Shown here one piece after another: positions 14,772 to 17,675 of a stretch of DNA of 64,000 bases (within the stretch, counting starts at the first letter, position 1; each line of letters opens with the position of its first letter). The position numbers and the translations under genes were made by a program. The DNA comes from Escherichia coli (GTDB taxonomy: Bacteria; Pseudomonadota; Gammaproteobacteria; Enterobacterales; Enterobacteriaceae): the NCBI RefSeq assembly GCF_036507355.1, contig NZ_AP027877.1; one strand, given 5' to 3'. A model generated the notes under the pieces. The model did not search any database and was not told the DNA's origin. It was given only the letters and a program-made list of their open reading frames with translations.

Positions 14772-14804
14772 TCACTTCGTCTGAAAGCTTGAGTAACAAC
14801 GGAA

Positions 14805-14829
14805 ACCGGCCATTGCGCCGGTTTTTTTT
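14805..14829 (+). terminator. Rho-independent terminator after osmE
   Basis: aaccggc-cattgc-gccggtttttttt. Confidence 0.85.
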
Positions 14830-15069
14830 GGTCTGAGTTCTTAATTATCTTCGCGAATTATTTGCCCGAAATGTGAAGAGGGTCATAACCGCAGGTCAAG
14901 GAGAGACAATTTATAAGGTCAAAGAAATACTATTGCTCAGGTCTATACCGTATACTCCTTTCAGCCACAAAAAAAGTCATGTTGGTTTCGCAAGTTACCC
15001 AGAGCATGGAAGCAGGTTAAGGCTTGCGGAGTGTCTGGCTGACAGATAATCGTCGATGAGGGCAGTTTT

Positions 15070-15390
15070 ATGGAAAAGAAACACATTTATCTGTTTTGTT
15101 CTGCGGGCATGTCTACCTCTTTACTGGTATCAAAAATGCGCGCACAGGCAGAAAAATATGAAGTTCCGGTCATTATTGAAGCATTTCCGGAAACACTGGC
15201 TGGTGAAAAAGGTCAGAATGCCGATGTCGTGTTATTAGGGCCGCAGATTGCTTATATGTTGCCCGAAATCCAGCGTTTGTTACCCAACAAACCGGTTGAA
15301 GTAATTGACTCGCTGCTTTATGGCAAAGTCGATGGTTTAGGCGTGCTTAAGGCTGCGGTTGCAGCGATTAAAAAAGCCGCAGCAAATTAA
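15070..15390 (+). CDS. chbB: PTS chitobiose-specific EIIB component
   Basis: 106-aa [37 protein letters not shown]... Confidence 0.93.
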
Positions 15391-15474
15391 TTTATTTTAA
15401 ATTTTCCCGTCAAAGAGTTATTTCATAAATCAATACCGCAATATTTAAATTGCGGTTTTTAAGGGTATTTTTCT

Positions 15475-15631
15475 ATGAGTAATGTTATTGCATCGCTTGA
15501 AAAGGTACTCCTCCCTTTTGCAGTTAAAATAGGAAAGCAGCCACACGTTAATGCAATCAAAAATGGCTTTATTCGCTTAATGCCGTTAACCCTTGCGGGG
15601 GCCATGTTTGTATTAATTAACAACGTTTTTC
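15475..15631 (+). pseudogene. chbC: chbC 5' fragment (PTS EIIC), truncated by IS1 after about 52 codons
   Basis: My translation of the frame starting at 15475: [52 protein letters not shown], then runs into the IS1 left end and stops. Confidence 0.85.
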
Positions 15632-15686
15632 GGTGATGCTGCCAACTTACTGATTTAGTGTATGATGGTGTTTTTGAGGTGCTCCA

Positions 15687-15962
15687 GTGGCTTCTGTTTC
15701 TATCAGCTGTCCCTCCTGTTCAGCTACTGACGGGGTGGTGCGTAACGGCAAAAGCACCGCCGGACATCAGCGCTATCTCTGCTCTCACTGTCGTAAAACA
15801 TGGCAACTGCAGTTCACTTACACCGCTTCTCAACCCGGTACGCACCAGAAAATCATTGATATGGCCATGAATGGCGTTGGATGCCGGGCAACAGCCCGCA
15901 TTATGGGCGTTGGCCTCAACACGATTTTACGTCACTTAAAAAACTCAGGCCGCAGTCGGTAA
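15687..15962 (+). CDS. insA: IS1 InsA (transposition inhibitor / N-terminal part of InsAB' transposase)
   Basis: 91-aa [43 protein letters not shown]... Confidence 0.95.
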
Positions 15963-16384
15963 CCTCGCGCATACAGCCGGGCAGTGACGTCATCGTCTGC
16001 GCGGAAATGGACGAACAGTGGGGCTATGTCGGGGCTAAATCGCGCCAGCGCTGGCTGTTTTACGCGTATGACAGGCTCCGGAAGACGGTTGTTGCGCACG
16101 TATTCGGTGAACGCACGATGGCGACGCTGGGGCGTCTTATGAGCCTGCTGTCACCCTTTGACGTGGTGATATGGATGACGGATGGCTGGCCGCTGTATGA
16201 ATCCCGCCTGAAGGGAAAGCTGCACGTAATCAGCAAGCGATATACGCAGCGAATTGAGCGGCATAACCTGAATCTGAGGCAGCACCTGGCACGGCTGGGA
16301 CGGAAGTCGCTGTCGTTCTCAAAATCGGTGGAGCTGCATGACAAAGTCATCGGGCATTATCTGAACATAAAACACTATCAATAA
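15881..16384 (+). CDS. insB: IS1 InsB frame (expressed as InsAB' fusion by -1 frameshift)
   Basis: 167-aa ORF in the -1 frame relative to insA; canonical IS1 organisation. Confidence 0.9.
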
Positions 16385-16399
16385 GTTGGAGTCATTACC

Positions 16400-16894
16400 C
16401 AGAAAGTCGAGAAACAACTTTTTGAGCTGTATAAAAACCCGGAGTTGAAAGTTAAGCCGAAAGAACTGGAACAGCGCGGTGGGGCTTATTACTCTGATGC
16501 AGCGTGCGAAGTGATCAACGCTATCTACAACGATAAGCAAGCAGAACATTACGTTAATATCCCGCATCATGGGCATATTGATAATATTCCGGCAGACTGG
16601 GCGGTAGAAATGACCTGTACGCTGGGGCGCGATGGCGCGACGCCACATCCGCGCATTACGCATTTCGATGATAAAGTGATGGGGCTGATTCACACCATTA
16701 AAGGCTTCGAGATTGCTGCCAGCAACGCCGCACTTAGCGGAGAATTTAACGATGTGTTACTGGCGCTAAACCTTAGTCCGTTGGTGCATTCCGATCGCGA
16801 TGCTGAGCTGCTGGCACGCGAGATGGTTCTGGCGCACGAGAAATGGCTGCCAAATTTTGCCGACTGCATCGCAGAGCTTAAAAAAGCACATTAA
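16400..16894 (+). pseudogene. chbF: chbF 3' remnant (6-phospho-beta-glucosidase C-terminal third)
   Basis: Frame open from the IS1 right end: QKVEKQLFELYKNPELKVKPKELEQRGGAYYSDAACEVINAIYNDK...ELKKAH matches the C-terminus of a family-4 glycoside hydrolase; no N-terminal part present. Confidence 0.85.
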
Positions 16895-17665
<771 letters not shown>

Positions 17666-17675
17666 GTAAGGTGGT

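Follow-up and report, generated by a model that had tools for sequence, protein, structure and literature searches.

The window, a 64-kb (64,000-nucleotide) stretch of Escherichia coli DNA, carries a truncated, presumably non-functional chbBCARFG operon with a complete IS1 element in its middle. On the plus strand we find chbB, an 84-nt spacer, 157 nt of chbC, IS1, 495 nt of chbF and chbG, followed by the convergent gene katE. On both sides the window is collinear with K-12, and the surviving genes keep their proper order and orientation. The features of the locus are the following.

14772..15069, plus strand: osmE-chbB intergenic region with the chb promoter and regulatory region, kept; collinear with K-12 and gapless.
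15070..15390, plus strand: chbB (PTS EIIB), intact; 106-aa ORF, 106/106 residues identical to K-12 ChbB.
15391..15474, plus strand: chbB-chbC spacer with the ChiX sRNA decoy site, kept; 84/84 nt as in K-12.
15475..15631, plus strand: chbC 5' remnant, 157 nt (52 codons and 1 nt); 100% identical to K-12 ChbC residues 1-52.
15623..15631, plus strand: left flanking 9-mer ACGTTTTTC, probably the surviving copy of the original target duplication; a recurrent IS1 target.
15632..16399, plus strand: complete IS1 (IS1A type), 768 bp, with IRL, insA, frameshift motif, insB and IRR.
15687-15962, plus strand: insA, 91 aa; InsA identical to K-12.
15881-16384, plus strand: insB, 167 aa; InsB one residue off K-12.
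15938-15944, plus strand: A6C frameshift motif TTAAAAAACTC, at IS1 position 307.
16400..16408, plus strand: right flanking 9-mer CAGAAAGTC, equal to K-12 chbF nt 859-867.
16400..16894, plus strand: chbF 3' remnant, the last 495 nt (164 codons); ChbF residues 287-450, 97% identical to the K-12 C-terminus.
16907..17665, plus strand: chbG (chitooligosaccharide deacetylase), intact; full length, 252 aa, the common E. coli allele.

The 5' part of the operon is well preserved. The osmE-chbB intergenic region, which we take to hold the NagC, ChbR and CRP sites, has four mismatches to K-12 within the 298 nt that precede the chbB start codon ATG. In the chbB-chbC spacer, a 12-nt core at 15406-15417 (CCCGTCAAAGAG) is a perfect complement of K-12 ChiX; the duplex energy is -36.1 kcal/mol, compared with -18.0 +/- 3.8 for 500 shuffles. 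Once induced, chb mRNA acts as a decoy that titrates ChiX through this spacer, so that the chitoporin gene chiP is de-repressed (PMC4098024). We observe that the decoy site is kept although the operon meant to induce it is presumably non-functional.

A tblastn search of the window with the six K-12 Chb proteins returned ChbB at 106/106 residues, ChbC over residues 1-52 only and ChbG at full length. ChbF aligned over residues 285-450, the first two of which lie inside the IS1 end, so that the remnant proper covers 287-450. ChbA had no match in the 64-kb window, and the only match of ChbR there was a weak AraC-family one in ydiP; the same search found no further copy of chbC, chbA, chbR or the chbF 5' part within these 64 kb. 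The chbC frame enters IS1 as cGG TGA and closes two codons into the element, giving an ORF at 15475-15636 with a 53-aa product. On the other side, the chbF remnant ORF can start at the earliest with the TTG at 16445 and spans 149 aa, its sole domain match being PF11975 (Glyco_hydro_4C, the GH4 C-terminal domain). For annotation, both ORFs are remnants and not genes, and chbB and chbG are best regarded as orphans of a dead operon.

The 252-aa ChbG matches the 249-aa K-12 protein over its full length with 91% identity, and the deposited protein BED22205.1 / WP_338388326.1 matches it exactly. As a side observation, the stretch 16400-17671, comprising the chbF remnant and chbG, is only 93.5% identical to K-12, compared with 98-99% in the flanking DNA, and the chbG-katE spacer measures 46 bp in the window versus 257 bp in K-12. 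The stretch has the look of a tract of old allelic variation or recombination that is common to other E. coli.

The element itself is of the IS1A type by its length, its repeats, its insA/insB' arrangement and its A6C motif. It differs from K-12 IS1A by 3 nt (99.6% identity), and both terminal inverted repeats, imperfect and about 23 bp long, are present (GGTGATGCTGCCAACTTACTGAT / GGTAATGACTCCAACTTATTGAT). In IS1, the A6C motif directs a programmed -1 frameshift that yields the InsAB' transposase. We see no sign of a defect in the chb copy, an active-looking element.

Alignment of the window to K-12 MG1655 shows that 3,415 bp are gone (K-12 1817643-1821057). The left flank ends at window position 15631, corresponding to K-12 1821058 and chbC nt 157, and the right flank starts at 16400, corresponding to K-12 1817642 and chbF nt 859. 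Missing are 1,202 nt of chbC, the entire chbA and chbR genes, and 858 nt (63%) from the 5' end of chbF. The initial annotation of this DNA had described the locus in the same terms: chbB and chbG intact, chbC ending after about 52 codons at a 768-bp IS1, C-terminal chbF directly to the right of the element, and the remainder of chbC, chbA, chbR and the first two thirds of chbF absent. All of this is borne out by the alignment, as is the corresponding list of lost functions: the permease EIIC except for its first 52 codons, EIIA, the activator ChbR and most of the phospho-beta-glucosidase, ChbF having lost its N-terminal 286 residues.

The 9-mers flanking IS1 are unequal, ACGTTTTTC on the left and CAGAAAGTC on the right, so no target-site duplication surrounds the element, and the earlier reading that this is not a simple insertion holds. 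The absence is informative, because two simple IS1 insertions in the same operon do have perfect 9-bp duplications: one at chbR 669-677 (L019), the other at chbF 833-841 (L021). It is expected for an IS1 copy at a deletion joint and is no argument against the identity of the element. The structure is as expected of an adjacent deletion: a single complete IS lies exactly at the joint, the deletion runs from the last base of the IS end, and there is no target duplication.

Is the joint real? IS1 is a multi-copy repeat and our inspection covered 64 kb of the genome, so the joint could be an assembly artefact, a false connection of chbC with chbF made when the repeat collapsed, or the missing genes could lie elsewhere. 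We consider this very improbable. The 53-aa junction-specific product was found by exact-sequence look-up on 14 contigs. Three of them (L005, GCA_905398635.1; L007; L009) match the window with 99.95-100% identity for 4-6 kb and break off in the same IS1 end. The 149-aa chbF-remnant ORF was found on contigs that start in the other IS1 end and are 99.95% identical to the window (L011, GCA_905398585.1; L012). L009 and L012 stem from one sequencing run, SRR32181686, which therefore contains both junctions; independent short-read assemblies end in IS1 at precisely these two points. The lineage also includes SRR31122001. Furthermore, a deposited E. coli chromosome of 4,643,937 bp annotates the 149-aa ChbF remnant (BED22204.1) beside ChbG (BED22205.1). 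Since the same two junctions recur in independent assemblies of the lineage, the joint is no artefact, and a small natural lineage carries the deletion as a fixed feature. It is unlikely that the genome has another chb copy, because E. coli genomes hold a single chb locus (median of one in 5,425 of 5,426 genomes).

The window as a whole is collinear with K-12 1836688-1768401 at 98.2-98.6% identity, and of 5,426 complete E. coli genomes the one that matches it best reaches 99.5% over 12 kb. Apart from the two IS1 joints that it contains, all of its approximately 60 K-12 genes are full length and free of stops. The region is not decayed in the manner of Shigella. A Shigella origin had been suspected from the two IS1 deletions in 64 kb, the lack of a close complete E. 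coli match and the S. flexneri and S. dysenteriae models without a chitobiose PTS. We reject it: the other K-12 genes of the window are intact, the database entries that match the ChbF remnant and ChbG exactly are E. coli proteins, and LR213455.1, whose ChbF fragment is named S. flexneri by one source, has other chb lesions.

Loss of the operon is rare in the species, at least 80% of the K-12 chb operon being present in 5,391 of the 5,426 complete E. coli genomes (99.4%). A survey of related genomes, suggested in the initial annotation, placed both junctions of the window in assemblies of its lineage and neither of them in any of the 5,426 complete genomes. Seemingly full-coverage junction matches in complete E. 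coli are two-piece joins that arise from IS1 at nearby but different positions. The left junction had no exact match in species-representative genomes, and its opposite-orientation form was not found in complete E. coli genomes. In our literature search, nothing specific came up on this deletion or on a loss of chb in Shigella.

IS1 lies within chbC, chbR or chbF in many complete E. coli genomes, and four other deletions of the operon are bounded by it. They are given here with the window, each by its two end points and the amount of K-12 sequence missing.

Window: chbC+157 / chbF+859; 3,415 bp missing.
AHB3: chbC+441 / chbF+982; 3,254 bp missing.
KTE102-type contigs: chbR+553 / chbF+832; 1,225 bp missing.
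2017-01-4CC: chbB+261 / chbF+1255; 4,112 bp missing.
MEI soil strains: chbB+153 / chbR+297; 2,315 bp missing.

The four share with the window the operon, the element, the orientation of IS1, the lack of a duplication and the removal of 1.2-4.1 kb; they differ in that every end point is distinct and neither junction of the window is shared. As all end points differ, we count them as independent events. Where we met chb loss in public genomes it is usually bounded by IS1, and the window adds one case. The orientation of IS1, with insA to insB co-directional with chb, is uniform in the window and in L001, L015/L022, L027 and L028, which with n=5 is not significant. Separately, in L019 (LR213455.1, 2363389-2373838, on a 4.63-Mb chromosome) a divergent IS1 of 91% identity lies in chbR with a 9-bp duplication. 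The chbC and chbF ORFs of L019 are split as well, a case of multi-hit chb decay; here one source names the shared ChbF fragment Shigella flexneri.

The left target appears to have been used by IS1 repeatedly. On five further contigs (L003, L004, L006, L008 and L010, with the junction at locus positions ~6157, 6157, 6157, 4931 and 2297, respectively) IS1 abuts the identical chbC nucleotide after ACGTTTTTC, in the orientation opposite to that of the window. The 2.1-kb flank of L003 and L004 is identical to K-12; those of L006, L008 and L010 show 11-34 differing sites per 2.1 kb with respect to K-12, the window and each other. Two distinct IS1 end variants occur among these opposite-orientation insertions. 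Judging by flanks and end variants, the site was hit in that orientation at least two other independent times, probably four; this one 9-bp chbC target would then have received at least three independent IS1 insertions, probably five, in both orientations. Such reuse suggests that ACGTTTTTC is a local IS1 hot spot, although the 53-aa look-up, made in a very large collection, catches only insertions at the exact site and so speaks for recurrence and not for a rate. Similarly, chbF nt 830-980 has been hit by IS1 repeatedly, at 833-841 in L021, at 832 in L015/L022 and at 982 in AHB3.

Two further truncations lie near the same point of chbC. In P0010, a truncated ChbC of the same protein cluster, IS1 is inserted 36 bp upstream of the junction of the window. 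P0003, a 45-aa ChbC fragment present on 239 contigs including complete genomes, is much commoner than the truncation of the window; it ends after residue 45, which suggests a further recurrent lesion some 20 bp upstream of our junction. We raise, tentatively and as a somewhat unlikely idea, that ACGTTTTTC, the chbC 5' end and chbF nt 830-980 form an IS1 hot spot determined by sequence or structure, that selection for, or at least tolerance of, IS1-driven chb loss may recur in certain host-associated lineages, and that the uniform orientation may reflect adjacent deletions made from one specific IS1 end. Two points may be of modest interest to biologists of insertion sequences: one 9-bp target was used several times, and five deletions share a single IS1 orientation.

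A second IS1 lies at the far end of the window, close to an intact sRNA gene.

61066-61833, same orientation as the chb copy: second IS1, 1 nt different from it.
61922-62029, minus strand: RprA sRNA gene, intact; the second IS1 has its right end 88 bp away.

This copy likewise sits at a deletion joint, with the flanking 9-mers GAATAGCAG and CAGCTTGCT. About 2.2 kb of K-12 sequence (about 1770567-1772775) is gone there, comprising ydiL, ydiM and 264 nt from the start of ydiN. The expression of RprA is probably unaffected, as the element is downstream of its terminator. A search against Rfam gave no match in the chb region and, elsewhere in the window, only RprA, Phe_leader, STnc540 and ES036. 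In another part of the window (28850-30748, minus strand) we note an uninterrupted 632-aa ORF, the counterpart of the K-12 pseudogene arpB; annotations of other E. coli genomes give this locus as the type III effector EspL1.

We now propose that the chb joint probably arose from a simple IS1 insertion in chbC and a subsequent IS1-promoted adjacent deletion, an order of events that we infer together with the deletion step itself. IS1 would first have entered the AT-rich 9-bp target ACGTTTTTC at chbC codons 50-52 and duplicated it. The transposase would then have joined IRR to a new target on the same chromosome, chbF nt 859, by intramolecular transposition, removing all DNA between both points, the right-hand copy of the duplication included. 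A single IS1 with unmatched flanks would be left. The chbC junction is favoured as the site of primary insertion because ACGTTTTTC is recurrently used by IS1 elsewhere. We count two further observations for an adjacent deletion: the second IS1 of the window is also at a deletion joint, of about 2.2 kb, and the four other independent IS1-bounded chb deletions make this a common outcome for IS1 in the operon. No intermediate with IS1 and its duplication in chbC and an intact downstream operon was found in the lineage of the window by look-ups of exact protein sequences, a search limited by the product of a 5'-truncated chbC being not reliably predictable.

The usual causes of a missing target duplication are adjacent deletion and recombination between two IS copies (PMC11708052). 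In the latter case two simple IS1 insertions of the same orientation, in chbC at ACGTTTTTC and in chbF at CAGAAAGTC, would have been followed by RecA recombination that looped out 3.4 kb together with one IS1. The expected product is identical, one IS1 with its left flank from the first insertion and its right flank from the second, and the earlier description of the event as an insertion followed by an adjacent deletion was on this account too definite; the IS1 at a deletion joint is what stands of it. Recombination is a frequent cause of an absent duplication (PMC11708052), the genome contains several near-identical IS1 copies, other strains have IS1 insertions near the chbF site, and chbC and chbF are often hit in complete genomes. 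A second independent IS1 in chbF is indeed plausible, given that nt 830-980 are repeatedly hit. Nevertheless, this route requires two independent, co-oriented insertions within 3.4 kb before the deletion; no simple insertion at the exact right junction was seen in any of the 5,426 complete E. coli genomes, and no two-IS1 intermediate of the lineage was found. We regard it as possible but rather unlikely, and prefer the adjacent deletion since it needs one insertion instead of two and since the right junction is not met as a simple insertion in those genomes. A single event may also be envisaged, in which IS1 transposed and deleted at once, with no prior IS1 at either junction and no duplication. 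Movements of IS elements with large rearrangements, lacking duplications and any sign of recombination or adjacent deletion, have been described, and duplication-free movement was proposed for some IS5 and IS481 events (PMC11708052). Such a mechanism is not known for IS1, and the left junction is the exact 9-bp target of ordinary IS1 insertions elsewhere, as if a normal insertion had come first; the single-step account seems to us improbable.

Certain consequences for the cell can be predicted. Without EIIC and EIIA there would be no Chb-mediated uptake of chitobiose or cellobiose, without ChbR the chb promoter would not be inducible, and ChbF lacking its N-terminal 286 residues would be inactive. 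Uptake, induction and hydrolysis of chitobiose are thus all expected to be lost. The gene chbB, the ChiX-decoy spacer and chbG would survive as orphans, IS1 cutting chbG off from the promoter. As chb mRNA should no longer be inducible, the decoy action on ChiX and the induction of the chitoporin ChiP should be lost too.

The gene content of the locus implies that neither a point mutation nor IS excision would reverse the loss, and that repair would come only from recombination with foreign DNA. The initial annotation had called it an irreversible loss of both Chb function and cellobiose use. The former can be kept in the sense just given; the latter is overstated, as E. coli has in asc a second cryptic route for cellobiose (PMC4488073). 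The asc genes lie outside the window, and a cellobiose-positive phenotype could in principle arise through them. The statement that the K-12 operon is "only cryptic" was imprecise: there chb is functional and chitobiose-inducible, and cryptic for cellobiose only (PMC4488073). The predicted phenotype, chitobiose-negative and non-revertible in one E. coli lineage, would have little import beyond the strain.

Parker and Hall in 1990 and Kachroo et al. in 2007 are said to have reported cellobiose use through a cel/chb operon activated by IS insertion. The window resembles these cases in that IS elements, IS1 included, land in chb, and IS1 is present in the chbR gene of many complete E. coli genomes. 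However, activating insertions alter regulation and keep the structural genes; the event in the window cannot be an activating mutation, since the transporter, the regulator and the hydrolase are destroyed. Mutations in ChbR and NagC also take part in the activation of chb for cellobiose (PMC4488073).

Among IS-rich lineages of E. coli and Shigella, the chitobiose pathway is lost recurrently. In the metabolic models of Hawkey et al. 2020 (PMC7373316, S11 Table), the references for S. flexneri and S. dysenteriae lack the chitobiose PTS reaction CHTBSptspp, and those for E. coli, S. boydii and S. sonnei have it. The window differs from Shigella in that its other K-12 genes are intact except at the second IS1 deletion and its deposited proteins are labelled E. 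coli.

A close likeness is to the IS1 adjacent deletions, classically in gal and lac, and to the IS-mediated deletions of the Lenski long-term lines (PMC11708052): an intact IS at the joint, no duplication, a deletion that begins precisely at the IS end and a size in the kilobase range. Unlike those cases, the window holds a chb allele of a natural isolate, for which the order of steps is deduced rather than observed. It is a new instance of a well-known, textbook process and of ordinary gene loss.
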